This document shows positions 7,474-36,687 of a DNA stretch of 64,000 nucleotides, piece by piece (positions within the stretch are counted from its first letter, which is position 1; every line of letters starts with the position of its first letter). Source of the stretch: Candidatus Cloacimonadota bacterium (GTDB lineage: Bacteria; Cloacimonadota; Cloacimonadia; Cloacimonadales; DAONDQ01); contig DAONDQ010000004.1 in the NCBI GenBank assembly GCA_035402645.1, positions 293 through 64,292 of the forward strand, written 5' to 3'. The position numbers and the translations under genes are program-made. Under the pieces are notes generated by a model that did no database searches, was not told where the DNA came from, and worked only from the letters and a program-made list of their open reading frames with translations.

Positions 7474-9230
7474 GACGCACCTCTTGTCTTATTTTTATTA
7501 TTAATTGGATTCATATTTCCATCTTGGGAAATCTTTTTCATATCTTTAGCCATTGTCCCGTCAGCCATCTGCATCATGGCTTTCTTTCCACCTTGCGAAT
7601 TAGGATCGCCTTGAGCAGCTTGTATACGAGCAAGTCTTTCTGCGTGGTCTTGCGAGGCTTTCGCTGCTTCGCCTTTTGGGAAACCAATAGTTTCCGACGC
7701 CGTAGCATTGGAAACAAGTCCTGCTTCTGCAGCCTTCATAATGAATTCCGGATCGGTATTCATAACCTCAGCTGAATCAATTTCCTCGAATATCTCGTCC
7801 ATAGTGGTAGGAGATGCTTTATGCCCGAGAGTAAGTTGAGCAATATCCTTAGCTATGGCTTTCTGATATATCTTACTTGGAACAGTAATCATAACTTTAG
7901 CTTTCTTCATGGCTTCATCAGAACGTTCAGCTTCTGTCTGTAATGTGAACTGGCGAGGATAAGCTACTGTTACGTCATTAGGCTTATTCTCGTACATATG
8001 CCACAGTTCAGCTATGCGACGTTCAGTTGATTCAAGCATCACACCGAGATAAGCCAATCCGCTAACGAGACCTTCGTTGTCTAATTCCTTACTTTCAGCT
8101 GATGCCATACGAGGTCTGATATTATTGAGATTCAGAGAGATGAGTTCGCGTATTTCTTTCTTCATAGCATCCTGTTTCTCCATCGAAACCTTTAGAGGTT
8201 CGGGAGAAGGATGTATGAATCCCGGACGTTCTGAACCGACAGGATATTTACGCCCTTGTGCTGCACCAGTTACGATTTCTTTTGCCTTAGCTTGATCAGC
8301 TTCTTGAGTTGTTCCTTCTACTGGAGCAGTATTCCCACCTAATCCGCCAGTGCTAACCGCTGCAGTTGATGCGGTCTGTGCCTTACGGATGTACTCCATC
8401 ATATCACTTTTTGGATCATACTGTTCAGTATAGAACGGGAAATTTGATTTCGTTATGTAATTGATGTCGGAAGAAGCAATATTAAGAAGAGCAATCTGAT
8501 AATTGGCTATATCTGCCATCAATGCTTGCTTTGTTTCCAGTATGATAAATGGTATTTCTTTGATTTTCAAATCAAAACCGCTTATCTCGTTTCCTGCTTC
8601 ATCATACTCGGTAATGGAGACGCCCGCCGGTGTCCTAACTAAGTATCGGTAGGTTATCTCTATTTCGTCCGGAAGTCCCCACTGTTCATCAACGTCATTA
8701 CCATGACAACGAAGAAGCAGAACCGATAATTTGTTATCTTCGCCATACTGCCAAGAGAGAATATCCTCAGTAGGGAATGTGTATATGTATGGGTGCTTAT
8801 CTCCGAGGGTAGCCATCGTAGGTCCGATGTTCTTGTGCATATCCACGTATATGCCTACGCGAGCCATAGGAAGAAGTTCAGTTAATACGTTCTCGCCAAT
8901 GTAACCATTCATGCTTGAACCGTGTTCATCTACTCCACCAATCAATCCGGCTATGGCTTTCTGATATGATTCAGAACCATTTGTACGACGAATGTCGTTG
9001 GCTCGACTGAATATGGCTTTCCTAACGTCCTCGATAGCAGTTTTTGCGAAAGCCGGAACATAGGTAATAGCCTTCCTAACAAGGAAATCGTTATTCGTTT
9101 CCCTTGTGGAATAGTATTTAAGATACTGATCTATGAAATCGTCGCCACCGGCATATGTGTAACGCCACTTCTTCCACTTGTCATACATGGCTTTATATTC
9201 GGGATGACGAATATCAATCAGCTTACCCAT
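7470..9230 (-). CDS. portal protein
   Basis: 586 aa, starting 1 nt inside the TerL stop. Size, position and the flexible Gly/Lys/Asp-rich C-terminus fit a portal. The call rests on synteny rather than a motif. Confidence 0.7.
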   Translation of the reverse strand: MGKLIDIRHPEYKAMYDKWKKWRYTYAGGDDFIDQYLKYYSTRETNNDFLVRKAITYVPAFAKTAIEDVRKAIFSRANDIRRTNGSESYQKAIAGLIGGVDEHGSSMNGYIGENVLTELLPMARVGIYVDMHKNIGPTMATLGDKHPYIYTFPTEDILSWQYGEDNKLSVLLLRCHGNDVDEQWGLPDEIEITYRYLVRTPAGVSITEYDEAGNEISGFDLKIKEIPFIILETKQALMADIANYQIALLNIASSDINYITKSNFPFYTEQYDPKSDMMEYIRKAQTASTAAVSTGGLGGNTAPVEGTTQEADQAKAKEIVTGAAQGRKYPVGSERPGFIHPSPEPLKVSMEKQDAMKKEIRELISLNLNNIRPRMASAESKELDNEGLVSGLAYLGVMLESTERRIAELWHMYENKPNDVTVAYPRQFTLQTEAERSDEAMKKAKVMITVPSKIYQKAIAKDIAQLTLGHKASPTTMDEIFEEIDSAEVMNTDPEFIMKAAEAGLVSNATASETIGFPKGEAAKASQDHAERLARIQAAQGDPNSQGGKKAMMQMADGTMAKDMKKISQDGNMNPINNKNKTRGAS

Positions 9231-10909
9231 TAGAAAATTCCTCCTATGTCTTTATATCCCGCGGTCTTCGCTGCGAGATTGAAAGCAATCTCCGAGTAAG
9301 TGCGAGAATGAGCAAAATGGTCAGGTCCGACATTCATGAACTTCGCGACAGGATTGCCATTATCATCTTTCTCGTACACTTTAACAACTGCTTTCATATG
9401 TTCTTTGTATTCCATTTCTGCATCCATAGGAATCTTGATGCGTTTGGCACTAAAACGGCTGATTGCCAAATCCATCCACGATGTCCTGTCTACTGTAACC
9501 GTCGGTAGTTCGCTACCAAGTATGGTATCCCTACTCTTTTGGTCGCGTCCATAGAAGCAAGCATAGGCGATGCCAGGAAATCTTGCACAGAACTTGAGAG
9601 ATTCGCGACGTTCGGGATTTGCATCAATAACTACGCAGTTAGTTGCGTACTTCATTACAAACTTGTCCAGTTCATTGAAGTCCACAACTTTACCTTCGAA
9701 AAGTATACGAGGTATGAAGTTCATGTGCATATCTGAATCAGAACTAACCGGTGCGGGTATCCATTCGCATACTTCCACGTTCAGCCACTTGCCAACATCA
9801 ACGCCCATAGTTACAATATGTGAACGAGAAGAGTCTGCCCCGTTCTTGTATGCGGAAGAACAATCTTTGATTTCGGAATCATTAACTCTCGCTCCCTCTA
9901 CAATATGAGGCAGACCTAATTTCGAGTTATAGAACTCCTGTTCATCAGCAGGATTGATCATCGCCTTGAAGTATTGGCTAACGATTTCCGCGGGGCTAAC
10001 TGTGCCCGAGTAAAGTTGATTGATATAGAAACCGCGGGATGTCGCTTGGCTATTCTGCGAAACCCACTCGCCTTTGGCTAGCCAATCGGTCTTCGTTGCA
10101 TGGTCTAATTTGCCCTTGCAGCTCGTACAAATCAGATACGACTCTTTGACGGAAGGGTCGAAGGCATCTTTGCCGCGAATCTCTACGGATTCGGGGAAGG
10201 TGAGTTCCGTTTGTTTCGAGCAGCAAGGGCATGGGAAGAAGAAATGTTCCATCGTGCTCTGCTTATATGGAACATCAATGCCGAAATCCGGCACGGTCGG
10301 AGTGGATACCATCCACATCTGCTTATCCAACTGACCGCTCATACGTTCCCATACAAGCGGTATATGTTCGACGACCATCTTGTCTAACTCGTCAATGGCG
10401 CATCGACCGACAGGTACGGAAACCAAATTAACTTTAGACCGCGAGCCTCTTATGTAGAGATTCGCCGATCCTGCACGTTTGTGCTTCGTGTTCTTCACAT
10501 CCGAGAACATAGTATCTAAATGGGGACTTAATTCGAGGGCTGCATCGAATCGGGATGAACTGAATATCCCTGCGTTATCATCGTTAGGTAGGACATACAA
10601 TACTGATTCACCACGTATGTCGATATTGAAGAACGTCCAGTTAAGGAGTAACTCGGTGTAACCCATCTGCGCTGCTTTACGACCGACGTTGAGTTCAGCT
10701 TTTGAATCATGCATACCGCGAAGCCAAGGATGATGCTTGAAGTTCCATAACCCCGGATATGGCTTGCCCATTACGCGATATTGTTCTGCCCAATTTGAGC
10801 AAGTCGTTAGCGCCGATCTCTTTAGACCGGTTTCAATCTTGTTGAAAAACAACGCGCCGAGATTCTGCTCGGGTTGCTCAACAAGTGCTAAATTTCCCAG
10901 TGTCATCAT
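9230..10909 (-). CDS. terL: terminase large subunit (GpA-like)
   Basis: 559 aa. It has the GpA-type Walker A variant GRKAAQMGYTE, Walker B CAIDELD, and the C-terminal nuclease signatures MGVDVGKW and VVIDANPERRE. Confidence 0.85.
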   Translation of the reverse strand: MMTLGNLALVEQPEQNLGALFFNKIETGLKRSALTTCSNWAEQYRVMGKPYPGLWNFKHHPWLRGMHDSKAELNVGRKAAQMGYTELLLNWTFFNIDIRGESVLYVLPNDDNAGIFSSSRFDAALELSPHLDTMFSDVKNTKHKRAGSANLYIRGSRSKVNLVSVPVGRCAIDELDKMVVEHIPLVWERMSGQLDKQMWMVSTPTVPDFGIDVPYKQSTMEHFFFPCPCCSKQTELTFPESVEIRGKDAFDPSVKESYLICTSCKGKLDHATKTDWLAKGEWVSQNSQATSRGFYINQLYSGTVSPAEIVSQYFKAMINPADEQEFYNSKLGLPHIVEGARVNDSEIKDCSSAYKNGADSSRSHIVTMGVDVGKWLNVEVCEWIPAPVSSDSDMHMNFIPRILFEGKVVDFNELDKFVMKYATNCVVIDANPERRESLKFCARFPGIAYACFYGRDQKSRDTILGSELPTVTVDRTSWMDLAISRFSAKRIKIPMDAEMEYKEHMKAVVKVYEKDDNGNPVAKFMNVGPDHFAHSRTYSEIAFNLAAKTAGYKDIGGIF

Positions 10910-10979
10910 CTTTCGCGTCTACCCTCTTTATGATTCTCTCTATGAATACGTTTAACGCGCCTAGGTTTCATATGCTTCT

Positions 10980-11522
10980 TCATGATTCTTTCCTCTCCGT
11001 TAAAGCGACCTGCATTTCGCGCACAATATTCTCAATCGTTTCTTTATCTGTAACGTATTTGTTTATGATTCCGACAATCTGCTCTGCCATCCTTATAACC
11101 GTGGTCTTCTCAATAGTGACGCCCATGTCCTTCTCCAATTTATGGCAACTCGTCACCAGTTTCTCGATCTTCAGTATGAGTTCGCTAATCGCGCCGGATT
11201 GAAGAATCATCTCGCTTGCATTTTCGAAGGCGTTCATCTTCTCTTCGAGAGTCATACGAAGTATAGCAATCTCATCGCGCAAGTCCTTAATGCCACTTGA
11301 TTCCCGCATCTCCGCTGCGCGAGTATGGAACTTCGTCAATCGGTAGTTGCGGAGGTTCTTCTCCTTCGCCTCGGTAGTAGCAGTATCACCGCCGTGTGCC
11401 AAACAATACTTCGAACCCACTTCGGCAACGTTGAGACACTGCCCATGAGCCTGTGAACCGGCTTGACACCGATTAGGATCGCGTTCATCCGTTACCCGTT
11501 TGATTCGTTCTTTATCAATCAT
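10980..11522 (-). CDS. putative terminase small subunit (zinc-ribbon plus coiled coil)
   Basis: 180 aa directly upstream of terL. The N-terminus carries RCQAGSQAHGQCLNVAEVGSKYCLAHGG, a C..C..C.H cluster, followed by a helical domain. The call is by position only. Confidence 0.45.
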   Translation of the reverse strand: MIDKERIKRVTDERDPNRCQAGSQAHGQCLNVAEVGSKYCLAHGGDTATTEAKEKNLRNYRLTKFHTRAAEMRESSGIKDLRDEIAILRMTLEEKMNAFENASEMILQSGAISELILKIEKLVTSCHKLEKDMGVTIEKTTVIRMAEQIVGIINKYVTDKETIENIVREMQVALTERKES

Positions 11523-11860: not shown

Positions 11861-11934
11861 AAACTATTTTTAAAATATTTTATTTATTTTGCTTGTATAG
11901 TTTGTTTATTTACGAATGACAATTATATTATTAT

Positions 11935-12058
11935 AGGATAATAATATATCCTATGTTCATTGATAATATAATAGTTTGAAGTTTGTAAAAACTGGCACGA
12001 ACGTGCAAAGCTACAAATTAAAACAAAGGTAAATAATAACAAGATAAAAACTTGTTAT
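11935..12058 (+). promoter_or_regulatory. repeated regulatory module, copy A
   Basis: It opens with the near-palindrome AGGATAATAATATATCCT. A 24-nt block ATATATCCTATGTTCATTGATAAT (11944-11967) follows and is identical to 13236-13259. Next comes a nested hairpin at 11982-12017. The module ends with the hairpin ATAACAAG-ATAAAAA-CTTGTTAT (12036-12058). Confidence 0.55.
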
Positions 12059-13209: not shown

Positions 13210-13353
13210 AAGGATATACTATATATAAGGATATTATATATCCTATGTTCATTGATAATTAAATAGTGTTTTGTTTTTCAAAAACGGGATTTTGAAAATC
13301 CAAGCTGAAAACAAAATACAACAGGGAAATTAAAAAAGATAAAAACTTTTTTA
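13210..13353 (+). promoter_or_regulatory. repeated regulatory module, copy B
   Basis: AGGATAT..ATATCCT near-palindromes are followed by the 24-nt block 13236-13259, identical to copy A. A nested hairpin lies at 13268-13319. The module ends with the hairpin TAAAAAAG-ATAAAAA-CTTTTTTA (13331-13353), which has the same loop as copy A on a compensatorily changed stem. Confidence 0.55.
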
Positions 13354-13392: not shown

Positions 13393-14490
13393 AAATGATT
13401 GAATATTGCTTTTCCGCTTTCCTCAAAAATGAGGTGCGTAAATGATTAATCTTAAAGGTCTTAAAATTCAGGAAATAGCAAAAGACAAGTGCTTTCCTAA
13501 CGTCAAAAATCCGAGAATTGAACTTATCACCTTTGATATAGATGATACGCTCAAAGATGAAAAGACTACAACAGGAATTAAAAAGCCTTGCGTTGTCTTT
13601 GATGATGGTTCGGGAAAATTTGAAATAGGGCAAGGTCACCGCCGTTGGGCAAGTGCCATGAAATTCGAACATATCAAAACTATTCCGTGTATTGTTATTC
13701 CGAAAAGCGGATTAACGGAATTGGATATGTTGGAAATTCTTATGGACCATAATGAGGAAACACCGCTTTCAAAAGCGGAATGTTTCAAGGCAATAAAGGA
13801 ATTTTTCCTTTTGTCTTTCGGTGATTCGGCAATAATAAAGCGTTGTAAAATGCTTCTGAATTCCTCTTTCGGTAGTCCATCGCCGGAAAAGATAAAAGAT
13901 GCTCGAAAAGAGGCGGTCGAAATGCATGAAGATGCCGACCGCGCCGAAGAAAAAGTAATTTTCGAAAAGCACCACGGCACTATTCAGAATTTCCGCCGTC
14001 TTGCCCTTTTGCCTGTTTCCGTTCAAGAGGAATATATAAAGGCATGGCAAGGTCGGAATTCCGACCTAACTCAGAAAGATATTAAAATACTTTCTGAATT
14101 TTGGAACGAACTTGTAAAGGCTAATCCGGAAACAAAGGTTTCCGAACCTCCAAAAGCGTTCGAAGATAAGGTCGAGGAACTAAAGGAAATAAACCGCCAA
14201 CCGGATGATAAGAAAAAATCCGTAAAGCGGTCAAAGTCCGACATAGAAAATATGTCAAAAGGCACTGAAAATGCTATCGTGCGGAAAACTCTTTCATGGG
14301 TTTTAGGTGAAATTACTGATTCCGAGTTGAAAGATTACGTCAAGGCAAAAAGCAACTAACTAACATGGGACGGGAAATCCCATGAATGAGATTTCGTTTT
14401 TATTGATTTTTATTGTAATAGCCTTTATATACTGGCTATGTTTTGAGAAATAAATAAAATCGGAAAGCGGAAAGCAATATTCAATTATTT
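13393..14490 (+). repeat. inverted-repeat pair bracketing the ParB-like gene
   Basis: The left arm 13393-13422 is AAATGATTGAATATTGCTTTTCCGCTTTCC. Its reverse complement matches 14462-14490 (GGAAAGCGGAAAGCAATATTCAATTATTT) with one indel and one mismatch. Confidence 0.85.
13442..14359 (+). CDS. ParB/Srx-fold N-terminal domain protein (paralogue 1)
   Basis: 305 aa. The ParB box-II-like sequence is EIGQGHRRWASAMKFEHIKTIPCIV. The C-terminal LSWVLGEITD matches LAWTIGEISD of ORF 28311-29213. Confidence 0.65.
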   Translation: MINLKGLKIQEIAKDKCFPNVKNPRIELITFDIDDTLKDEKTTTGIKKPCVVFDDGSGKFEIGQGHRRWASAMKFEHIKTIPCIVIPKSGLTELDMLEILMDHNEETPLSKAECFKAIKEFFLLSFGDSAIIKRCKMLLNSSFGSPSPEKIKDARKEAVEMHEDADRAEEKVIFEKHHGTIQNFRRLALLPVSVQEEYIKAWQGRNSDLTQKDIKILSEFWNELVKANPETKVSEPPKAFEDKVEELKEINRQPDDKKKSVKRSKSDIENMSKGTENAIVRKTLSWVLGEITDSELKDYVKAKSN

Positions 14491-14934: not shown

Positions 14935-15098
14935 TTGAATTGCACACGATGTATTGCTTGGATGCCATCGTCGACGGAGATTTCAAAAGTTACAAGAAAA
15001 GCTATCTGTATCTTGCGGAATTGAGCAGGAAATTCACTAAACTGCACAAATTCATCGTCATGATTCTCGAATCATTAGAAGAAAGGAGGATGGCATGA
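14922..15098 (+). CDS. hypothetical protein (58 aa, below the ORF-track cutoff)
   Basis: The ATG at 14922 overlaps the end of the previous ORF. The product begins MEKLIELHTMYCLDAIVDGDFKSYKK and the stop is at 15096-15098. The terminator follows 35 nt later. Confidence 0.4.
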   Translation: MEKLIELHTMYCLDAIVDGDFKSYKKSYLYLAELSRKFTKLHKFIVMILESLEERRMA

Positions 15099-15133
15099 AG
15101 TAAACAAGTAAAATTAGTCCTTTTTGATCATGA

Positions 15134-15170
15134 ATGGCGCATAATTTACCCCGATTATGCGCCATTTTTC
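15134..15170 (+). terminator. rho-independent terminator ending the plus-strand early block
   Basis: A perfect 12-bp stem, ATGGCGCATAAT / ATTATGCGCCAT, closes an 8-nt loop and is followed by TTTTC. Confidence 0.8.
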
Positions 15171-15460
15171 GTGCCTGTAAACCGATGACGGCAGAATCAC
15201 CACATAAGGCGCTGATTCTCCGCCCTGCATCCATTTCCGCCTGTAAAAGCGCTAAAAAGCATTAATCATGATTTGCTGATCTTAGCGAATCATAAAATAC
15301 AATGTATCGCGAAAACTGGCTTCGTGGTAAATTCCGGATTGATTCTTCGGTACTCCGAAGATTACATGATTTAGTGCCAAGATTAACAATGTTAGTTTTA
15401 CGAGTTTGGATTTGGTCAGTAAAGGGAAGTCGGATTCAGAATCATTTTGAGGCTGGATTC

Positions 15461-15502
15461 TAACTTACTTACTAATATACTTACTAACTAACTAACTAAC
15501 TT
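15461..15502. repeat. TAACTTAC / CTAA short tandem repeats
   Basis: TAACTTACTTACTAATATACTTACTAACTAACTAACTAACTT. TAACTTAC is the reverse complement of the GTAAGTTA iterons at 33901-33924. Confidence 0.8.
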
Positions 15503-15642
15503 CGTCAAATATGATAAGCATACTCCCCTATATATGTACATATACTGGTCTCCTGTCAGTAACTCCGTAAAGCAAGCCTAAGTTTTCAGCCAGTACGGAC
15601 ACGTAAAAGCCTGTAAAATCGAAATTTAAGCGGTTACTACGC

Positions 15643-15694
15643 AATTAAAGGGCATTTCCCGAAGGTTTTGTAAAACCGACTCCGAGAAATGCCC
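15643..15694 (-). terminator. terminator-like hairpin ending the minus-strand replication block
   Basis: On the minus strand, GGGCATTTC ... GAAATGCCC forms a 9-bp stem. It contains an inner GGTTTT/AAAACC stem and is followed by TTTAATT. It lies 38 nt after the nuclease gene stop. Confidence 0.55.
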
Positions 15695-15731
15695 ATTGGT
15701 AACTTTTGTCAATGAAATGTGTAAACTGAAT

Positions 15732-16901
15732 CTATCGCGCTCGCGTCATGGTATCTAACCATTTATCATTGTCCGATGGCGCAATCATGCAACTGTTAAT
15801 TAACATTTCGCACTGGTTCACCGAAGCTAATTCGGGGTTCACTTCGAACTCGCTGAGCGTATGCTTGAAAAACATCTTCTTGAGCCTTTCGTCGTCGAGA
15901 GCCAGTATACTCCACAAGTATATATACTTCTCCATCAGAGATTTTTGGAAGTCCTTACCGACACCCATACGGAAACTGGCGATTCGTATCTCCGGCATAA
16001 GGGATTGTGCAATCACGAGTTCCTCATACTCCGAAGCCGACATCATTCCCCTATCCCTTAATTGCTTACAACAGAGTTGATCAATACCGCAGTATATCTC
16101 GTCACCCACTTCCGCGCCGAGTGCCCAAGCATAGGTCACGACCTGTCCTGCCCATTCTTCGCTGACCGTTTCGAGGTTCAACATACCATTGACATTGATA
16201 CCGCACACGTTGTGATGCATATAATCTTTGTGTGCTTTATTGTGGTTCTTGGAATGTGCGCCAATCGTTTCATCCCAACCATCACGTAACACACTATACC
16301 CTTTCTTTGGACTTGTTGTCGATGCGCTCATGAAGCCATTGACTTTCCAATCGAGGATGAACGTCGCGATTTTGTTGCCATCGGACGCGCAAGCGGTTTG
16401 GAAACAAAGATCGGGCTTACCTAACAATGGTACGCCGTGCATAGTTCGCGTGACCGTTTTCTCCATTTTAATTGATCCCTCAATCGCCTTGCCCATATCC
16501 ATAGCTAACGATGCCAAAGCACCGGATTGCATATAGCAACGGAAGGCGTATCGACCGGCATTAACAAGGAACTCTCTGTTCCTTACACTATGACTCGCTT
16601 CGACCTGCGTAGTAAGCATAGTTTCGAGGTCGTATTCCGTGCCCGCGGATTTCCCAATCAGTTTCTCGTAAAGCCACGACTTCGCGAACGCATCGAACGA
16701 CGATCCCACGCCCATAGGAACGGTCTGCGGAATCTTCTCCGGCGGATTAGCACAAATCCTTTGGAGGAAGAACTCGTCGGGATACTTGTAGAACTGATTG
16801 ACCGACGTAGGGGATAGGAATTTAGGTCGACGAAGCGGTGGCACTTCCCCGTAAATCGGCTTGAATATTAAAGTCTTTCCATCATGTGTTCGGTAATTCA
16901 T
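15732..16901 (-). CDS. PD-(D/E)XK (RecB/Cas4-like) nuclease
   Basis: 389 aa. Motifs are GKPDLCF, FILDWKVNG (D...D-x-K) and QVVTYAW (QxxxY). The N-terminus contains LIFKPIYGE. Confidence 0.55.
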   Translation of the reverse strand: MNYRTHDGKTLIFKPIYGEVPPLRRPKFLSPTSVNQFYKYPDEFFLQRICANPPEKIPQTVPMGVGSSFDAFAKSWLYEKLIGKSAGTEYDLETMLTTQVEASHSVRNREFLVNAGRYAFRCYMQSGALASLAMDMGKAIEGSIKMEKTVTRTMHGVPLLGKPDLCFQTACASDGNKIATFILDWKVNGFMSASTTSPKKGYSVLRDGWDETIGAHSKNHNKAHKDYMHHNVCGINVNGMLNLETVSEEWAGQVVTYAWALGAEVGDEIYCGIDQLCCKQLRDRGMMSASEYEELVIAQSLMPEIRIASFRMGVGKDFQKSLMEKYIYLWSILALDDERLKKMFFKHTLSEFEVNPELASVNQCEMLINSCMIAPSDNDKWLDTMTRAR

Positions 16902-17996: not shown

Positions 17997-19019
17997 TCAT
18001 TCTTCCTCCATGTAAGGTCTATGATACCTTGCTTCCTTTGGAACGCCATCAACTGTCAGTTCACGATACCGGAAAGTAATCTTCTTTCCTAACGGGAAAT
18101 GAGGACTAATACCCACACATTTATATCCGGGAATCATATCCTCATTTGGATGAAAGGTTCTTTCCGCATCGGTCATGCCACTCAACTCGAAGCTCTTGCC
18201 ATGCCAACCTATGACTAATGCACCAATCATACCTAACATCTTGCCTGTCTTGCCTTCCTTACCGGCGATGTATCCGGTAACGTATCCTTCATCATCTTTC
18301 CAAGGTTTGATTTTAAGTATGGTATTGCATCGTTTCGCCATCCATACATCGTAACTTGCCCTAAGCATTAGACCTTCACCGCCTTTATCGCAAACCTCTT
18401 TCAATGCTTGATTGATGTTGGTAGTGCTGAGGTTCGTGTAGTCCACCAAGCAGATGTTACCATTCCAATTAATTCCGCTTAGTCTCTCATAGGTCGCTCC
18501 GAATGTACTACTTTGGCATAGTTCCTTGATTCCCAAATCACGCCAATAGGATTCAGCTTGGACAGGAATTATCACATCCGTCTTGCTGATGACTCTCGGC
18601 TCAAGGAAGTAACGAACCATAGGCGCACCGAACACCATCAAGTTGATTCGTTCCCAATTCTTGATGTCCTGTTCGGTGTAGTCGAGCCTCTTGGTTATGC
18701 TCATACATTCTTGGAACTGTCCTCGACCGAGGTACAACTCACCTTCGAGAAGATAAGGATGTTGCATCAGTTGCTCGATGATGAAAGGCGGAGCAGTTAT
18801 AACCTTCCCCAAGGAAGACCATAGTCCAGTGCTAATCATCTCGCGCTTATCCTTCTTAGTATTCGCCCATGTTACATTCTTCGCGGGCATACCCACAGTG
18901 ACGCCACCATCCCAAATGAAGTACCTACCATCTAGCTTTTCGCTGATGTACCAATCACTCGGATTGATAATGTGCTTCTTTGGATCGTAGACGTGTGCTT
19001 TATGTATGAACTCAGCCAT
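17997..19019 (-). CDS. ATP-dependent DNA ligase
   Basis: Motif I is SEKLDGRY (KxDG), motif III LEGELY, motif IV GGEGLMLR and motif V ILKIKP. The start is moved to the ATG at 19019 (MAEFIHK), which is preceded by AGGAGGA. The track start at 19097 lies inside the upstream gene. Confidence 0.85.
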   Translation of the reverse strand: MAEFIHKAHVYDPKKHIINPSDWYISEKLDGRYFIWDGGVTVGMPAKNVTWANTKKDKREMISTGLWSSLGKVITAPPFIIEQLMQHPYLLEGELYLGRGQFQECMSITKRLDYTEQDIKNWERINLMVFGAPMVRYFLEPRVISKTDVIIPVQAESYWRDLGIKELCQSSTFGATYERLSGINWNGNICLVDYTNLSTTNINQALKEVCDKGGEGLMLRASYDVWMAKRCNTILKIKPWKDDEGYVTGYIAGKEGKTGKMLGMIGALVIGWHGKSFELSGMTDAERTFHPNEDMIPGYKCVGISPHFPLGKKITFRYRELTVDGVPKEARYHRPYMEEE

Positions 19020-19317
19020 TTGAATCGTCCTCCTGTATTGGTAAATTCTCTTGTTCAAGTTGATCGAGTATATCACCCTCGTCTCGTATACGCACACTCA
19101 TGTAATCGTGTTCGCACCCGCACTCACAACAAACCTGTATTTCATCAACTTCATCTTGTGCATATATAGGAGTAACTGATTCGTCATCGATGTCCACATT
19201 CTTAGGCAGACAACCAATACAATACACGTCGCCATTCCAAGTTACCGCATCGAATTCGAATAGCATCATGGTTTCAGACTCCCAATTAATGCTTGCTTCT
19301 TCATGCATGGTTCGCAC
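19012..19317 (-). CDS. hypothetical Cys-rich protein (101 aa)
   Basis: CIGC ... CCECGC. In-operon. Confidence 0.4.
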
Positions 19318-25234: not shown

Positions 25235-25586
25235 TAGACCTTCTCCTTTTTATGATTGTTATCAACGTTCCTTTGTTCATAATAAGGTAGTTAGGAATCT
25301 TTAGAGATGAGGCTTCCTTTCGTAAGGTTTCCACATTCCAAAGATCGAGTGGCAGTAACTTCTTATTATGTTCAAGCCAATTTTTTAATTCCTCAATCTT
25401 GCCTTCCATTATCCATTTGAAAATCTTATCCTTGTCTTTGTACTCCTCGAAGATTAATTCGAATTCCTTGTTAGCAATATAGTTTTCTACATTACGGAAG
25501 TTCTTCACTTTATCGTGAAGGTCTTCCCGAATATGCCCCAGTAGGGACTTTACTTCTCCGCCCATGATTTTAATCCTACCTTCCAT
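25227..25586 (-). CDS. hypothetical protein (119 aa)
   Basis: In-operon ORF overlapping the polymerase stop. The alternative start is at 25565. Confidence 0.4.
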   Translation of the reverse strand: MEGRIKIMGGEVKSLLGHIREDLHDKVKNFRNVENYIANKEFELIFEEYKDKDKIFKWIMEGKIEELKNWLEHNKKLLPLDLWNVETLRKEASSLKIPNYLIMNKGTLITIIKRRRSNA

Positions 25587-27814
25587 TCCATTTTGATTAG
25601 TGGAACTCTAGGTCTAAAAGATTCCACAGTTTGATTGACTATATCTTTAACACCCATAACCTTATCGTTTCTGACCGGTGTTAATATTTCATCATGAATG
25701 TTCAGAGGTGCGACGATCCAATCGCCGATACCTGCAGGTTGCATGTCCCATATGCGTCGCTGTACCCTTTTAGTGATTTGTGCGCCACTCGACTGTATCC
25801 TATGATTACAAGCTGCTCGCATAGCCCCTGCTTGAATTGCAAACGCAGCTCCGAACAAAGCACTTCGAACCGCGCCCGAAACTGATTGTTCTCTGTCGCG
25901 ACGAGTAACTGTAATCTTGAGACGCGTCCACTCTTTAGGTGGTGTTTCAGCAAGGTCAAAAAGCGCTTTACAGATTTTGTTTTCGAGTGTGAAGTAACGC
26001 CTAAAACCAAAGAGAGATTCGATATAGTCTGCAGGTTCATGCCATTCGACTTTTGTTCCAAGACCATTTGGCTGACGCATGGAACAAAACATATCGAACA
26101 CTTTGCGCCTCGCTTTACCAACCTCAGTGTACACCGACGTAAATCGCCTATACGCTTCATTAGCAACCTCCAAATCGACACCAAGTCGATCCTTTAATGT
26201 TTCAGCTTCACCACCATATAGGAGGGCGAATACTGCTTGTTTACATTTAGTATAAATAGCTTTGTCTGCACGTATTTCATCATATGATTTATCGAGAAAC
26301 ACGTACTGACCGAATAGTGCATGAATAGATTTACCAATCAGTAGGTCTTTGTGTAGGTTCGGATCGTTGTACTCTGCATCTGCCAGTACGACCTCAAATG
26401 AATCAAAGTCCCCACCACATAGAGTATAGTGTCGCGGATCGAAATTCAATGGGAAGCACTCCCTAACATATTTGTCATGCTTTATGCCTTGGGGGTTAAG
26501 ACCGTCAGCACCACTCATACGAGTAGAAAGTGTCCCAATAACTTTAAAGCTAGGACAGAATCGTCCTGCTTGAAGTAGCTTATCATACAACTCGACTTCC
26601 TTCATAGCTTGCCTACAAATGAGAACTTCTTCTGCTCTCAATGCGGATGGATGACGAATCATAACTGGCTCAAATGAGTTTGGATCGTTCTTCTCCCATT
26701 TGGCTATATCTTCCAGTATGGTCTTCTTAGTTGAATCAATGAAGGCTTTCTCAGTTTCATCCATAGGTTCAGTGACGTACATCAGAACTTTCTTAGGAGC
26801 ATTTACGAAAGGCAGTGATTCAGCAATCGCCTGTACCTTAGCTTTCAACTCGGTCATCTTCTCAATATCAACCTTGAAGCCATGCCAACGTACTGAACCA
26901 ACCATGCAAGCTAGTACTGAATCATCGTCATCCATGTGCATATCGCCTTGCTTCATGAAGTGCTCATACAATTTCCTAGTGTATACTACATCTGTTTTAG
27001 CATACTCTCTTGCTTGCTGATTATATCCCCAATGAGTTATATGTACATTAACTTTGTCTACCCAAGTATTAAGCCAGTGACCGCGGTAAGTCTGTTGCCA
27101 TACACCACGATCATTCCATACACCTGCTAAAGCATAAGGCGCGTAACCGTATTCCACAGGTCTGTGTCTTGATTCGACCTCCACATCTTGATATACAGTA
27201 ACATCGTTCTTATTCACGAGTCCAATGTCCACTGCCAAAGCCTTTAACGCACTGCTCGGAGCGAATTTCAATGTTACAGTTTTGAAGTCTACATCATCCT
27301 CTATATCCAGTACGTGCCATTGTACTCCGTTCTTGCTTCGCATGAAATAAATGGGATTCAATGGTATTAATTCATTTAACTTCTCAGCTAAAGAGTAGGC
27401 AAGCATGGTAGGTACTCTATTGATGTTTATATCTTCCCTATCCATTGTTGATTGATATTCACCTTTCCTTGCGTGTAGCATAAGGTCAAGACAGTGTTTA
27501 GGTTTCAAACAAGCACCATCCATAGCTTTAGGTTCAAGCATAGCAAGGTCTTCAATTATGTCGATTGGATAATCATCGTAGTTATGCCATAGTGATAGCA
27601 TATTATAAATCTTGCATAGATGGAAATGATCGAAAGCCAAATTGAATCCTACAAGACCGCCTTCATGATCCATCATCATTTCGATTAAGGATAAGGTTTC
27701 TTGTATAGGTGTAGTCCATACGGAATGAAGTTTGATAGGTTCATCATCCACTTGGTATTGGATTAGAACCACCACACCATGTAAGCCACAAGTTTCTGTA
27801 TCATACCATATCAT
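25550..27814 (-). CDS. family A DNA polymerase with 3'-5' exonuclease domain
   Basis: Exo I is WYDTETCGL and Exo II is FNLAFDHFHL. Polymerase motif A is GGDFDSFEVVL, motif B KQAVFALLYGG and motif C NIHDEILTP. Confidence 0.9.
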   Translation of the reverse strand: MIWYDTETCGLHGVVVLIQYQVDDEPIKLHSVWTTPIQETLSLIEMMMDHEGGLVGFNLAFDHFHLCKIYNMLSLWHNYDDYPIDIIEDLAMLEPKAMDGACLKPKHCLDLMLHARKGEYQSTMDREDININRVPTMLAYSLAEKLNELIPLNPIYFMRSKNGVQWHVLDIEDDVDFKTVTLKFAPSSALKALAVDIGLVNKNDVTVYQDVEVESRHRPVEYGYAPYALAGVWNDRGVWQQTYRGHWLNTWVDKVNVHITHWGYNQQAREYAKTDVVYTRKLYEHFMKQGDMHMDDDDSVLACMVGSVRWHGFKVDIEKMTELKAKVQAIAESLPFVNAPKKVLMYVTEPMDETEKAFIDSTKKTILEDIAKWEKNDPNSFEPVMIRHPSALRAEEVLICRQAMKEVELYDKLLQAGRFCPSFKVIGTLSTRMSGADGLNPQGIKHDKYVRECFPLNFDPRHYTLCGGDFDSFEVVLADAEYNDPNLHKDLLIGKSIHALFGQYVFLDKSYDEIRADKAIYTKCKQAVFALLYGGEAETLKDRLGVDLEVANEAYRRFTSVYTEVGKARRKVFDMFCSMRQPNGLGTKVEWHEPADYIESLFGFRRYFTLENKICKALFDLAETPPKEWTRLKITVTRRDREQSVSGAVRSALFGAAFAIQAGAMRAACNHRIQSSGAQITKRVQRRIWDMQPAGIGDWIVAPLNIHDEILTPVRNDKVMGVKDIVNQTVESFRPRVPLIKMEWKVGLKSWAEK

Positions 27815-28310: not shown

Positions 28311-29213
28311 TTACTGTTCTGAATCACTGTTATCACCCACCAGTTGAGATGTCGTGCTTATACACTGTGATTCCGGCATTACGAACTTGATGTTATTCTC
28401 CTTCGCGACGTGTTCGACAGTGAGAAGCATATCGTAATCACTTATCTCACCTATTGTCCATGCAAGGGCACGAGTAGCAAGTCCGTTACCAAATGTTTCA
28501 CGAATCAAAGTCTGAAGTTCCAGTACCTCGGACACGTGCCTCTGCCTCTTGGCATCTTTCTTTGCTACTCTAATGGTCATCTTCTTTCCATTAGCAGTGC
28601 CTTTAGTTCCCTTGTATTTGTGAACCAACTGAACCATGTCATCGATTGATCCGCCGTTCTTTCTAATAGTATACAGGTCACGAATCATGGTCTGATTGAT
28701 ATTACCAAGTCTTGCTTCTTCTTGGAACTCTTTAGGTAATTGGAGAAGCATACACCGAACCTGTACCCAACCACGAGTTGAGGACAACTTGTCTGCTATC
28801 TCCTGTTGAGTCATTCCTAAGTCGATGAACTTGCCTAATGCATTAGTTTCATCCATGATGTTTAAATCTGCTCTCTTGATGTTCTCCGCGAGATTTATGA
28901 ATCGCGCTTCCACATCACTAAGGTCATCACGTATGAAGCAAGGTATGGTCTCGGCTTCATTTACTTGATGCGCTTTGAATCGACGATGACCTGCAACGAT
29001 TATATACTTCTTACCATCTTTAGGCTCTTTCAATGTCCTAACGATGATTGGTGCGTGTAGACCGTTCTTTTTTATATCGTCAGCTATATCCACCACACTC
29101 AAAGCACTGAAACTACCACGACAGTTGAAATCCGGATCAGCGAATATTTCCTTCACCGGAATCTGATGTACTTGATAGCGTTCCTTCATGTTTTCCAACG
29201 ATAAATCTGCCAT
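28311..29213 (-). CDS. ParB/Srx-fold N-terminal domain protein (paralogue 2)
   Basis: YIIVAGHRRFKAHQVNEAETIPCFI is like ParB box II (GxRRxxA), followed by an HTH-like MTQQEIADKLSSTRGWV. Confidence 0.7.
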   Translation of the reverse strand: MADLSLENMKERYQVHQIPVKEIFADPDFNCRGSFSALSVVDIADDIKKNGLHAPIIVRTLKEPKDGKKYIIVAGHRRFKAHQVNEAETIPCFIRDDLSDVEARFINLAENIKRADLNIMDETNALGKFIDLGMTQQEIADKLSSTRGWVQVRCMLLQLPKEFQEEARLGNINQTMIRDLYTIRKNGGSIDDMVQLVHKYKGTKGTANGKKMTIRVAKKDAKRQRHVSEVLELQTLIRETFGNGLATRALAWTIGEISDYDMLLTVEHVAKENNIKFVMPESQCISTTSQLVGDNSDSEQ

Positions 29214-32663: not shown

Positions 32664-33665
32664 TTATGCGATCTTGATTCCGACGGAAGCGGCATCCTTC
32701 TTAGCCTGCTCTGCTTCCTTCTGAAGTTTGGCAATCTTTGCCTCGGCGTTCTCGTACTTCTTCTGAACGGTTTCCTTGATACGCCTTTCCTTCGCTTCGG
32801 CGAGAGCCTTCTTACGGGCTTCGTACTTGGCGAGAGATTCGGCAATCGCGGCTTTGTCCATTTTCAGAACCCAGCGAATCGCAAGTGCGAATCCATCGGC
32901 AGGAGTACCGGCGTTTTCCTCTTTGCAGAGTTTCGCGCCAATAGCCGGTGATTCATATTCACCCTTGATTTCGGCAGGTTTCCTCATGACAGGAATTGCC
33001 ACGAATTCTTCCGGCTGACCGTCCTTGCCTTCGCGACGTGCCTTGTCGAGTTCCTTCTTCCTTGATTCAACAAGGGGAACGAATTCAACGGGAGGAAGAG
33101 TCATGGCTCTGTCAAGGAAAGCTGCGATTTCGCCTTCGGGTAGCTTGCTGAGTGCATACGCATTACCGAGTTTGATTTCACCGCTATCAACGGAGTCCTG
33201 TACTTCCTTGGGAAGAGTAAGGAGACCAAAGCGTTCTGAAATCCATGCCGTTGATTTGCAAATCTTCTGAGCGAGATCGGCAACGGTCATGAGAGGGTAG
33301 ACGGAAAGCATACGCTTGAGACCTTTGGCGTACTCAACGGGCTTTGTGTCGACCTTCTGAATATTCGCAACAATCTGAGTTTCAAGAGCTTCTGCCTCTG
33401 AAACATCGAGGATCTGAACAGGTATCTCAATCAAACCTGCCCTCTTTGCGCCTGTATAGCGATGGAGACCATCAACGATACAGAATTTCCCCGCATTTTC
33501 GCCGTCGCGGAGTTCACGGACGCTAATGGGATTTACGATTCCCTTAGCCTTAATCGATTCTGCAATCTCCTGGAACTGTTCTGATTCCTCATTTACTGAG
33601 CGCAGAGCGACGGGAGATTCGACGATCTGATCCAGTTTGAGTGTCGCAAGTTTTGACATTTGCAA
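32664..33665 (-). CDS. ParB/Srx-fold N-terminal domain protein (paralogue 3) with a Lys/Ala/Glu-rich C-terminal tail
   Basis: CIVDGLHRYTGAKRAGLIEIPVQIL (ParB box II-like) is followed by an HTH-like MTVADLAQKICKSTAWISERF. This is the first gene of the minus-strand block. Confidence 0.65.
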   Translation of the reverse strand: MQMSKLATLKLDQIVESPVALRSVNEESEQFQEIAESIKAKGIVNPISVRELRDGENAGKFCIVDGLHRYTGAKRAGLIEIPVQILDVSEAEALETQIVANIQKVDTKPVEYAKGLKRMLSVYPLMTVADLAQKICKSTAWISERFGLLTLPKEVQDSVDSGEIKLGNAYALSKLPEGEIAAFLDRAMTLPPVEFVPLVESRKKELDKARREGKDGQPEEFVAIPVMRKPAEIKGEYESPAIGAKLCKEENAGTPADGFALAIRWVLKMDKAAIAESLAKYEARKKALAEAKERRIKETVQKKYENAEAKIAKLQKEAEQAKKDAASVGIKIA

Positions 33666-33784
33666 CTCCTTTCTCGTGATTGTTCAATCATTGCACTTTT
33701 AAGGAAACAATAATCATAATCATCAAAACAGAATTCCGGCAATCTTCTGATTGTGATTATCAATATAGTTCCTTCCGTCAATGT

Positions 33785-33813
33785 ACTATACTACAATATA
33801 TAAGAAAAAACAA
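33785..33813 (-). promoter_or_regulatory. sigma70-type promoter, copy 2 of 3 (drives the minus-strand replication block)
   Basis: The minus strand reads TTGTTT-17 nt-TATAGT, inside the left arm of the inverted repeat. Confidence 0.55.
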
Positions 33814-33900
33814 GTAAGGTTACAAACTTACTAAAAAACAGTTTGAAATACGTTTATATATATGGTATATATTACAATATTTAGCAATCTATAAATATTT

Positions 33901-33924
33901 GTAAGTTAGTAAGTTAGTAAGTTA
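33901..33924 (+). repeat. three tandem GTAAGTTA iterons
   Basis: GTAAGTTAGTAAGTTAGTAAGTTA. A fourth, inverted copy (AACTTAC) lies near 33825. Confidence 0.85.
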
Positions 33925-33932
33925 AATAATAC

Positions 33933-33961
33933 TTGTTTTTTACCTTATATTGTAGTATAGT
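33933..33961 (+). promoter_or_regulatory. sigma70-type promoter, copy 3 of 3 (drives the primase-methylase block)
   Basis: TTGTTT-17 nt-TATAGT, inside the right arm of the inverted repeat. Confidence 0.55.
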
Positions 33962-34047
33962 ACATTGTAAGGAATTTACCCGTTGCAGAATCACAATCAT
34001 AAGCATTTCAAAATTGATTGTGATTATTTAAAAAGATTGGCTAATCA

Positions 34048-36687
34048 ATGCGTAGTGATGTCGTTAAAAAATTTCTAACTGCCCAAACTCATTCTGACCT
34101 CGCGATGATTTACGAATCATTCATGCAGTGTCATGTACTTGTTTCATCAGATGGCTCAACTAATAGGGATGGAGCAACCTTTACAAATGGAATTGAAACA
34201 TGGTATCCATTTGTTATATCTGACAATGAGTCTGATTCAAAAATCATTAACTTCAATTTTGATGCCCACGTAGAAGGTATAGGCTTAACTGGTTGGGATT
34301 GGAAGAACAAGTTATCCCGATGGGTAGCCTTCGACTTCGATTCTATTGTTGGGCATAAGAAAGGACTTACCGATGGAGAAATCAAAGAGATCAGTGGTTC
34401 TATTGCAGAAATCGATTACGTCACCATTCGTAAGTCTACTGGGGGAAAAGGACTTCACATCTATGTTACACTCAATCCTCCGATCCCAACTACTAATCGC
34501 TCGGAACATGCAGCCCTTGCGAGAGCCATCTTACATAAAATATCAGCCCAAAGTGGAGTTCCACTTAAAGACAAAGTAGATATTTGTGGCGGTAATATGT
34601 TTGTTTGGCATCGTAAGATGACCAAAGAGAATCAAGGCTTACTTCTCATTAAACAAGGTAAGCCACTTGATGATGTTCCCAACTGGAAAGATCAGATTGA
34701 TTTCGTAATCGGAGGCAAACCTAGAGTAAAAGACTTTGATGGTGTTGCCACTGCTAAGATTGATATTGCCATTGATGAAGAACATAAGAAGTTAATCAAC
34801 TTTTTACAGGAAAGGCGAGCGATGTGGTATTGGGATGGCGACAAACATATGCTTGTTTGTCATACAGCCGATCTTGCTGATGCCCACAAAGAGATGAATC
34901 TTCGTGGCATCTTCCGAACGGTTGCAACGGGTAAAAACCGTCCCGATATTAATTGTTTCGCCTTTCCTCTTCGTCAAGGTGGTTGGGTTGTAAGACGATT
35001 TGGAGCAGGTACGGCAGAAGATACAAATTGGGATTTAGATGATAAGAATTGGAGAAAATGTTATTTCAATGTCGATGCCGATATTAAAACTGCATCTCAA
35101 ACATTCGGAGGAATAGAACATACTTCCGGTGCTTATGTATTTAAAACCGCTGATGAAGCAGGATTAGCTGCATCTGCTTTAGGTGTTCACTTAGCACTAC
35201 CCGACATAGCTAATTATTGTACTGCTTCAATCAAAGAACATAAAGATGGTAGACTCATAGTATCTATTGAGGATAAAGAGCATAAGATTCCACAATCAGA
35301 GATGCAAGGTTGGATCAAAGAGAAAGCTACTTGGAAAAGATTATATATCAAACCTAGAACAGTTAAAGCTAAAGAAGATAATTCATCTTATGATGATTTC
35401 ATTAGACATTTAGTATCTCCAAGTGGAGAAGATTATGGTTGGGCATTAAGAACAGAAGAAGGTTGGAACTTCGAAGCACTGGCACACGTTCGATTGGTTC
35501 TTGAATCAATGGGACTACCTACTCAAGAGGTACGTGATGCATTAGGTAATAGTGTTATGAAATGTTGGAAGATAGTTAATATACCATTTAAAGATGAATA
35601 TCCGGGCGGTAGACAATGGAACAGGAACTCCGCTCAAATACGATTCCAACCATCACTTGATGTTACTTTAGACTTAGCAAAGAAGTGTCCAAGTTGGTGG
35701 AGAATACTTAGTCATTGTGGAGCAGGTCTTGATGATATTGTCAAGATGAATGATTGGGCTAAAAGCAACAACATTCACTCCGGTGCTGAGTATCTAATCA
35801 CTTGGATAGCGTCGATGTTCCAAGAACCAACTGAACCTCTCCCATACTTGTTCTTCTACGGACCTCAGAATAGTGGTAAGAGTATATTCCATGAGGCATT
35901 ATCTCTATTGGTTACTAATGGAATAGTTAAAGCAGATAACGCTTTGATTAATAAATCGGGATTCAATGCAGAGATGGAGTCCGCGGTACTATGCGTTGTT
36001 GAGGAAATCAATTTGGCTAAGAGTAGAGAAGCAGCTAACCGAATAAAGGATTGGGTTACTGCTAGGGATATAATGATTCATAGGAAAGGCAAGACACCTT
36101 ATATGATGCCTAATGTATCACATTGGGTACAAATGAGTAATGATCATGATGCCTGTCCTATATTTCCCGGCGATACTCGAATAGTAGTTCTATTCGTTGA
36201 TAAATTGAATATCATCATACCTAAGAAGAAGTTGATTGATTCACTAATCGAAGAAGCAAGGGACTTCATGGCTTACATAATTAATTATAATCTTCCGGAG
36301 TCCTTCGACCGCTTGAATGTACCAGTGATTGCAACATCCGACAAGATGAATATTGAACAATCTAATAAGAGTATGTTAGAGATGTTCATAGATGATGAAT
36401 GTTTCCGTTGTGATGGTGAAATGATTAAGTTCAGTGAGTTCTGTGATAAATTTATGGAATGGCTTGGACCTACAACAGAGTTTTGGTCTAAGCAGAAGAT
36501 TGGGAAAGAACTCCCTCCTATGTTCCCTAAAGGTAGGTTACCTCAGAGTGGTCAGTTCTATGTAGGTAATATTACTTTCGATGCGGAAATCAAATCGACA
36601 GGTAAGTGTGTTGTATTGGGTGATAAGTTAATTAAACAAGAAACAGTAATATCAGAGGCGGTAGTTCATGAATCAAAACTTATTTGA
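34048..36687 (+). CDS. bifunctional AEP primase-polymerase / SF3 (D5-like) helicase
   Basis: 879 aa. The AEP motifs are VAFDFDS (DxD) and GGKGLHIYV (sxH). The SF3 Walker A is FFYGPQNSGKS and the Walker B is LCVVEE. Confidence 0.85.
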   Translation: MRSDVVKKFLTAQTHSDLAMIYESFMQCHVLVSSDGSTNRDGATFTNGIETWYPFVISDNESDSKIINFNFDAHVEGIGLTGWDWKNKLSRWVAFDFDSIVGHKKGLTDGEIKEISGSIAEIDYVTIRKSTGGKGLHIYVTLNPPIPTTNRSEHAALARAILHKISAQSGVPLKDKVDICGGNMFVWHRKMTKENQGLLLIKQGKPLDDVPNWKDQIDFVIGGKPRVKDFDGVATAKIDIAIDEEHKKLINFLQERRAMWYWDGDKHMLVCHTADLADAHKEMNLRGIFRTVATGKNRPDINCFAFPLRQGGWVVRRFGAGTAEDTNWDLDDKNWRKCYFNVDADIKTASQTFGGIEHTSGAYVFKTADEAGLAASALGVHLALPDIANYCTASIKEHKDGRLIVSIEDKEHKIPQSEMQGWIKEKATWKRLYIKPRTVKAKEDNSSYDDFIRHLVSPSGEDYGWALRTEEGWNFEALAHVRLVLESMGLPTQEVRDALGNSVMKCWKIVNIPFKDEYPGGRQWNRNSAQIRFQPSLDVTLDLAKKCPSWWRILSHCGAGLDDIVKMNDWAKSNNIHSGAEYLITWIASMFQEPTEPLPYLFFYGPQNSGKSIFHEALSLLVTNGIVKADNALINKSGFNAEMESAVLCVVEEINLAKSREAANRIKDWVTARDIMIHRKGKTPYMMPNVSHWVQMSNDHDACPIFPGDTRIVVLFVDKLNIIIPKKKLIDSLIEEARDFMAYIINYNLPESFDRLNVPVIATSDKMNIEQSNKSMLEMFIDDECFRCDGEMIKFSEFCDKFMEWLGPTTEFWSKQKIGKELPPMFPKGRLPQSGQFYVGNITFDAEIKSTGKCVVLGDKLIKQETVISEAVVHESKLI

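Follow-up and report, generated by a model that had tools for sequence, protein, structure and literature searches.

A transcriptionally insulated gap in an uncultivated tailed phage probably holds a second, inverted copy of its presumed replication-origin core

Introduction

The satellite phage P4 carries the same type of iteron at its ori and at a second cis-acting site, crr, that lies several kb away. This second site is made up of two direct repeats of 120 bp, each with three iterons; it has no AT-rich origin core and works in either orientation. The P4 initiator, the alpha protein, joins a primase and an SF3-type helicase in a single protein, and its primase domain is DnaG/Toprim-like. 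Phage P1 has in incA a bare iteron array that acts in the copy-number control of the plasmid prophage. SV40, papillomavirus, the SaPI islands and pRN1 have arrays of 4-6 bp recognition units, also in inverted orientation, around or beside an AT-rich and easily melted segment, and have one origin each.

The closest documented parallel to the locus described here is the Bacillus phage SPP1. [quoted passage not shown]

Here we describe an uncultivated tailed phage of ~64.5 kb, of which a stretch of 64 kb (the window) was analysed. Between two converging operons, the window carries what is probably a second, inverted copy of the phage's presumed replication-origin core.

Results

Gene content of the window

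When the GenBank phage collection was searched by blastn, no relatives of the phage were found; NCBI lists a primase identical to its own among the proteins of a Candidatus Cloacimonadota MAG. The phage has genes for a replisome of its own, comprising PolA, a prim-pol/DUF5906 helicase, an SNF2 helicase, a ligase and a nuclease (Table 1). The SNF2-type helicase is encoded in the early operon, as is a sigma-like protein, and a Dam-like methylase gene comes after the primase-helicase gene. The primase-helicase combines a DUF5906 (SF3-type) domain with a weak prim-pol match and belongs to a family with more than 900 homologues at E < 1e-50; its nearest solved structure is PDB 6k9c ('Primase'), which we take to be the primase-helicase of phage NrS-1. 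Some relatives have intein/LAGLIDADG insertions in their primase-helicase genes (homologues P0132, P0168 and P0179), and another such insertion is present in the DNA polymerase gene of relative L245 (1-2994, a PolA homologue). Scans with Pfam and PHROGs of 20 ORFs outside the structural-gene regions found neither an integrase nor a ParA-type ATPase, and a search for tRNA and tmRNA genes was also negative. With its own PolA, and with integrase and ParA absent among those ORFs, the phage looks lytic.

On the other side of the gap, an AT-rich plus-strand cassette closes with the ParB-N-like gene and three small ORFs, reaching up to position 15098. We also note a 60-nt direct repeat (11932-11991 and 13224-13283, 78% identical). 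Its two copies rank first and second in instability among the 60-bp stretches of the window and bracket a 27%-GC cassette of small genes between the terS-like and ParB-like genes. Each copy holds the palindrome TATAGGATA..TATATCCTATA plus TTGATAAT..TAAT. The repeat is probably a repeated promoter/operator, and cos probably lies near it, upstream of terS, with a predicted position of 11.5-12.1 kb.

Table 1. Features of the window and of three relatives (positions of the window unless a relative is named)
Feature	Position	Strand	Remarks
GpA large terminase, lambda-type	9230-10909	minus	
Small-terminase-like (terS-like) gene	10980-11522	minus	
ParB-N-like gene	13442-14359	plus	N-terminal domain resembles Noc/ParB
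Intrinsic terminator	15136-15170	plus	ends ParB-like operon; hairpin 15136-15163
GCCTGTAAA, copy 1	15173-15181	plus	same side of module as copy 2
GCCTGTAAA, copy 2	15239-15247	plus	same side of module as copy 1
Inverted repeat ATGATTTGCT / AGCGAATCAT	15268-15293		-12.0 kcal/mol, z -4.0
TCTTCGG-TACT-CCGAAGA hairpin	15344-15361		weak; z -2.4 plus strand, -1.9 minus strand
Origin-like module, gap copy	15458-15568	minus	profile HMM E 2.6e-07, full length
Iteron run of gap copy	15462-15501	minus	nine AGTN tetramers, one break
Palindrome TATATGTACATATA	15531-15544		within AT-rich spacer; aligns with TATATATATGGTATATAT of origin copy
Box CTGTCAGTAAC of gap copy	15553-15563	plus	one iteron unit, inverted relative to run
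GCCTGTAAA, copy 3	15609-15617	plus	opposite side of module
Terminator-like hairpin	15650-15694	minus	ends early operon, just after nuclease gene
Early operon	33665 down to 15732	minus	long
PD-(D/E)XK nuclease	15732-16901	minus	last gene of early operon
ATP-dependent ligase	17997-19097	minus	early operon
Family-A DNA polymerase (PolA)	25550-27814	minus	early operon
Second ParB	28311-29213	minus	early operon
ParB with ParB_N and HTH domains	32664-33665	minus	early operon
Partner module, origin copy	33821-33929	plus	profile HMM E 1.2e-06, full length
Inverted iteron unit of origin copy	33826-33832		part of partner module
Prim-pol/DUF5906 (SF3-type) primase-helicase	34048-36687	plus	879 aa; diverges from early operon
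Triple AATCATGGT, relative L009	7236/7286/7661		
Triple CTTGACAA, relative L010	7227/7330/7776		
Triple CTAACAAA, relative L011	7332/7468/7564		

A gene-free gap closed by two terminators

The gap between the two converging operons (15099-15731) had originally been predicted to lack any ORF of 60 aa or more and to be flanked by convergent terminators, and both statements hold. It has zero ORFs of that length, and the gene callers placed no gene in it in any of the five contigs that carry the zone. The flanking hairpins are both real. That of the plus strand, with a 10-bp stem core (GGCGCATAAT/ATTATGCGCC) and 13 pairs in the predicted fold, is followed directly by UUUUU and is fully canonical as an intrinsic terminator; it folds at -21.8 kcal/mol (z -5.7), and 0 of 200 shuffles fold as well. 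The minus-strand hairpin is strong (-28.1 kcal/mol, z -5.9) and has a weaker tail, UUUAAUU. Both were overlooked by a simple terminator scanner. Analogous hairpins are found 3' of the nuclease gene in the relatives L009, L010 and L011. The two terminators would stop the converging operons from transcribing across the module that lies between them, and the gap is best read, with somewhat better than even confidence, as a transcriptionally insulated non-coding island with a duplicated origin-like core.

An origin-like module present at two sites

The tetramer repeats of the gap had been described as the reverse complement of iterons at the origin, and this is what we find: the run, which reads AGTT (four times), AGTA (twice), TATT, AGTA (twice) and AGTT, is the reverse complement of three copies of GTAAGTTA at 33901-33924. 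Runs of at least three AGTN units occur at only two places in the 64 kb, 15462-15501 on the minus strand and 33904-33923 on the plus strand, where shuffles give a mean of 0.69.

Each run belongs to a larger module with a fixed order of parts. Read towards the run, the module consists of a box, which is an inverted iteron unit, then an AT-rich spacer of 52-70 bp with a TATATA element, and then a tandem run of 6-10 AGTN tetramers with the core AGTAAGT. The box is TTACTGACAG or AACTTACTAA, the opposite strand of which reads as one or two iteron units (CAGTAAGT); L009 has the TTACTGACAG of the gap copy without a change. When a profile HMM was built from the modules of five relatives, with the window excluded, it had exactly two matches in the 64 kb, both covering the full model: the one in the gap and a partner between the gene for the ParB with an HTH domain and the primase-helicase gene, ~120 bp upstream of the latter. 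The two copies are 18.3 kb apart, and that in the gap is inverted relative to that in the origin region. When all 60-bp stretches of the window are ranked by duplex stability, the origin copy is the third least stable (top 0.1%) and the gap copy the 12th (top 1.3%). As judged from these sequence comparisons, 15458-15568 is a paralogue of 33821-33929.

We take the copy at 33.9 kb to be the presumed primary origin because it is next to the primase-helicase gene, is AT-rich and carries the repeats, because inverted iteron units flank the most melt-prone DNA of the region, and because divergent, operator-rich promoter regions lie on both sides.

Other sequences are also repeated in this intergenic region (33666-34047). 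On either side of the module is one arm of an 18-bp inverted repeat, GTACTATACTACAATATA (33783-33800 and 33948-33965), and outside these arms are four AATCAYAATCA / TGATTRTGATT sites, which are kept in the relatives L157, L158 and L244. These sites look like operators and resemble the heptad (WATCACW) arrays bound by ribbon-helix-helix repressors.

The module is conserved where the rest of the gap is not

Four near-identical contigs (L005-L008), which encode identical flanking proteins, match the window with 100% identity over 901 bp and so offer no informative variation across the zone. More can be learned from three syntenic relatives reached through homologues of the nuclease, L009, L010 and L011, whose nucleases are 63%, 54% and 51% identical to that of the window. 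In each, the nuclease gene is followed by a gene-free gap of 740-826 bp and a converging ParB-like operon, and the loci of L009 and L011 reach on to the terminase genes. Their gaps align only in a block around the AGTN run. The gap had been called conserved-looking, with related genomes proposed as the check; what is kept in all three relatives is the ~110-bp module, while the remainder of the gap does not align between them.

The same module is present ~120 bp upstream of the primase gene in the ParB-primase intergenic regions of L157 (from the same phage lineage as L010), L158 and L244. Origin and gap copies can be aligned across genomes, with a local alignment of 108 nt between the L158 origin and the L009 gap (score 88, z 29) and one of 117 nt between the origin of the window and the L011 gap (z 9.2). 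When the two copies of the window are aligned to each other, the tetramer run alone is significant (z 4.7), which counts somewhat against reading both as origins. The module is a real, conserved, non-coding element and presumably a functional one.

An IMG/VR scan for six AGTW units in a row returned more than 119 loci, mostly unrelated and including giant-virus contigs, and these do not encode the neighboring genes of the phage except for three Dam-methylase hits. Since the repeat is this frequent in unrelated viral contigs, its bare presence is not diagnostic, and it is the ordered, duplicated module that carries the signal.

The two-site layout extends further than the repeat itself. Contig IMGVR_UViG_3300048591_000302, whose nuclease and primase are 36% and 54% identical to those of the window, has no AGTN runs and carries GATAAATAAG repeats instead. 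In its post-nuclease gap, a stretch of 135 bp (L001 7345-7479) duplicates a segment upstream of its primase gene (L162 2693-2827) with 91% identity (E 1e-45), at a distance of ~20 kb. A different repeat at the same two sites implies that the layout is older than its sequence, and that the two copies change together within a genome would be expected if both have to be recognised by a single protein. In this contig the copies form direct repeats, whereas those of the window are inverted; the orientation thus seems not to matter, and its variability is a second point that weighs against the origin reading. A third comes from the more distant primase relatives, as a comparison of 26 primase loci with 80 nuclease loci, two same-contig pairs included, gave no repeats common to the origin region and the nuclease flank. 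Contig ERZ27247683 k141_1625842 likewise has no origin/gap repeat, and its gene order after the nuclease differs; the gaps of still more distant relatives hold other direct repeats.

Several further repeats were seen in these relatives. The gap of IMGVR_UViG_3300048591_000302 that holds the second origin copy also has, at L001 7660-7860, a cluster of ~20-bp palindromes (GGTGTGACAnnnTGTCACACC, GGTGCAACTTTTGTTGCACC), several of which are followed by a T-rich motif variant ending in TACTTTRG (TTTGTTACTTTAGG, TTTCTACTTTAGG, TTTGCTACTTTGG). The start of the same contig (L001 9956-10115) has, at the contig end, 23 repeats of the heptamer GAGCGTG, which are either an assembly artefact or a genuine terminal/tandem repeat. 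The palindrome TGTCTCAnnTAAGACA is dispersed through the early region of ERZ27247683 k141_1625842 (L161 9680-9700 and at least seven places in L159) and is probably a regulator site or a terminator. Non-coding gaps of L159 (13059-13549) and L245 (6900-7168) have long (CG)n palindromes, CGCGCGCGCGCG...CGCGCGCGCG, beside three or four direct repeats, and these stretches could form Z-DNA or cruciforms. Finally, the post-nuclease tail of a 45%-identical relative (L246 5100-5230) has three TTWGTAAGTYR motifs, spaced rather than tandem, the core of which is the iteron core of the window, along with 2.5 copies of ATGGGCAATTAACATGTTA.

Other elements of the gap

The sequence GCCTGTAAA had been reported three times in the gap and is indeed found there three times (Table 1), these being its only copies in the 64 kb. 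Only 2 of 2000 shuffles of the zone have a 9-mer that occurs at least three times. The triplet is non-random but lineage-specific. The gaps of L009, L010 and L011 each have a same-strand triple 8-9-mer of their own that straddles the module (AATCATGGT, CTTGACAA and CTAACAAA, respectively). Sigma-70 geometry around GCCTGTAAA and the TTGACAA blocks was considered, and neither inspection by eye nor a promoter scan gave a consistent promoter fit; the triples of the relatives did not fit promoter geometry either.

The perfect palindromes TATATGTACATATA and AATCATGATT, which had been singled out as notable, lose that standing: the window has six 14-bp perfect palindromes where shuffles have 5.4, and 58 of 10 bp, and at such chance frequencies neither is remarkable on its own. 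The AATCAT/ATGATT half-sites are present as claimed, with a marginal enrichment in the gap (5 copies, 1.4 expected, P 0.013). Three of them are accounted for by the inverted repeat at 15268-15293, which overlaps AATCATGATT and could be an operator or a hairpin. The half-sites are clearly enriched in all origin regions; their enrichment in the gap is seen in the window and in L009 and is absent from L010 and L011, and we rejected them as a second conserved motif of the gap. The CTTCGG hairpin exists, but it is weak (z about -2) and missing from the alignments with relatives.

Alternative roles of the module and the gap

The role favored by these comparisons is that of a second origin, as had been suggested among several possibilities, or of a related cis-acting replication site: the whole core is duplicated and the layout recurs. 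Each copy lies near a ParB-like gene, however, which makes the binding protein ambiguous, and the AGTN arrays might instead bind one of the three ParB-like proteins as centromere-like, ParB-loading or silencing sites. The origin copy is ~160-260 bp from the start of the gene for the ParB with ParB_N and HTH domains, and the gap copy lies downstream of the operon with the ParB-N-like gene, an operon that is syntenic in L009, L010 and L011; by comparison, P1 has its parS site downstream of parB, and F has sopC downstream of sopB. By eye, a ParB-box-like motif can also be made out in the translated gene that converges on the L001 gap. Against these placements, the 20 ORFs scanned include no ParA-type ATPase, no module lies near the third ParB gene (28311-29213), and no HTH domain was detected in the ParB-like protein 305. 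Moreover, the combination of an inverted unit, a melt-prone spacer and a tandem run is origin-like, and the sites are tetramer arrays, whereas the canonical parS is a 16-bp palindrome. We regard the centromere, also among the roles first suggested, as a minority rival and rather unlikely.

Less likely again, and to our minds improbable, is that the module is a duplicated promoter and that the zone yields an RNA, small or antisense, such as a transcript of the minus strand that would run from ~15504 antisense into the ParB-like operon. A weak sigma-70-like match (9/12) at 15540-15511 of the minus strand points into the run, the equivalent spacer of L009 has TGTATAAT (an extended -10), and the zone as a whole folds better than its shuffles on both strands (z about -3). 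However, promoter-like sites number 8 when 7.3 are expected from shuffles, and the folding signal is that of the terminators and of local hairpins, which relatives do not keep. The module itself has no consensus RNA fold on either strand (0 pairs predicted) and no Rfam family; for the zone, Rfam gave no match above threshold, and at E up to 10 only chance hits to the terminator hairpin, and the ncRNA genes once suggested are not supported. In the origin region, furthermore, the module is central, between the 18-bp inverted repeat and the operator-like sites, and off the positions expected of divergent promoters.

The gap could also be a passive spacer, made up of two terminators and a drifting tetranucleotide microsatellite, with incidental stop codons in all frames of both strands. 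The abundance of AGTW runs in unrelated viral contigs, the lack of conservation over most of the zone and the uninformative near-identical contigs would all suit such a spacer. Yet the run has been kept in place in relatives that share just 51-63% identity in the flanking protein, it comes in constant order with the box and the AT-rich element, a duplicate of it is present at the origin region, and a distant relative keeps the two-site layout with another sequence. A passive spacer is strongly disfavored and, in our estimation, highly improbable.

Least probable of all is a cos packaging site or the physical genome ends, another of the roles first proposed: the lambda-type GpA terminase does imply cohesive ends, and the zone has a 14-bp palindrome with two-fold symmetry, but the terminase genes (9230-11522) are ~3.6-4 kb away with an operon in between, whereas lambda-like phages have cos immediately before the small terminase gene. 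Moreover, palindromes like this one are about as frequent as chance predicts, the module is present twice, and none of the three contigs with mappable ends (L006, L007 and L008) breaks in the zone. Two further roles were rejected outright. An attP or integration site has neither an integrase among the ORFs scanned nor a tRNA to go with it, and a three-frame stop insulator as the main role is at odds with the same array lying between divergent promoters at the origin, where there is no translation to stop.

Discussion

From the duplication of the module, its conservation, the low duplex stability of both copies and the terminators around one of them, we infer a protein-bound site with a role in replication. 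One origin-binding protein would occupy both copies, the likeliest candidate being the prim-pol/SF3-helicase encoded beside the origin copy. The gap copy might then fire as a second origin, or, with the initiator bound to it, it might serve as an auxiliary site or a barrier to forks and so assist the circularised cos genome in passing to concatemer synthesis; a replication terminus, as initially envisaged, or a fork barrier persists only as such a sub-reading of an origin-like site. The need of a cos phage for concatemers makes the concatemer switch attractive, but a plain second origin fits the data equally well.

Compared with SPP1, the phage has the same disposition of two loci with repeats and an AT-rich unwinding element, one at the initiator gene (here the presumed initiator) and the other intergenic between transcription signals; the distance is 12-13 kb in SPP1 and 18.3 kb here. 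The machinery differs: in SPP1, gp38 acts together with a separate helicase of the DnaB type and its loader, and the phage has an unrelated prim-pol/SF3-helicase fusion. SPP1 packages by a pac/headful mechanism and this phage has a cos-type GpA terminase, and the repeats here are AGTN arrays with a 4-bp period.

The likeness to P4 lies in an iteron type that is repeated at a second site and in what may be a comparable initiator, as the presumed one here combines an SF3-type domain with a weak prim-pol match, and the orientation-independence of crr fits the variable orientation that we see. The primase of alpha is, however, DnaG/Toprim-like rather than prim-pol, and the second site of the phage is one module only, in which the entire core is duplicated, down to the AT-rich spacer that crr lacks. 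P1, too, has a second iteron cluster outside its origin, oriR, and incA binds the initiator; incA is a bare array, whereas here the AT-rich element is copied as well and the phage looks lytic. With SV40, papillomavirus, the SaPI islands and pRN1, the phage has in common short units that are arrayed and inverted at an AT-rich segment, and it differs in having two candidate sites rather than one origin; the AGTAAGT unit and a tandem run of up to nine units are not known from these replicons. Most probably the gap copy is a duplicated origin core, an arrangement of a known kind with an unusual tetramer iteron.

A bolder possibility, which we offer tentatively and think more likely wrong than right, is that the prim-pol/SF3-helicase phages of this clade read their origins through AGTN arrays and keep a terminator-insulated second core, either as a looping partner like crr or as a roadblock at the passage from theta replication to concatemers for cos packaging. 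If true, AGTN arrays used in this way would amount to a new code for origin recognition, and the SPP1 oriR model, itself still unproven, would come to cover an unrelated family of initiators as well. Were the second copy a mere second origin, it would be an ordinary feature, worth annotating; were it to bar forks or to act as a looping partner, the 'roadblock' model of SPP1 oriR would have an independent test in a replication system unrelated to that of SPP1. The origins of uncultivated phages have almost never been mapped, and here sequence comparison by itself yields two candidate origin sites together with a candidate recognition motif, the AGTAAGT arrays, for initiators of the prim-pol/SF3-helicase type.
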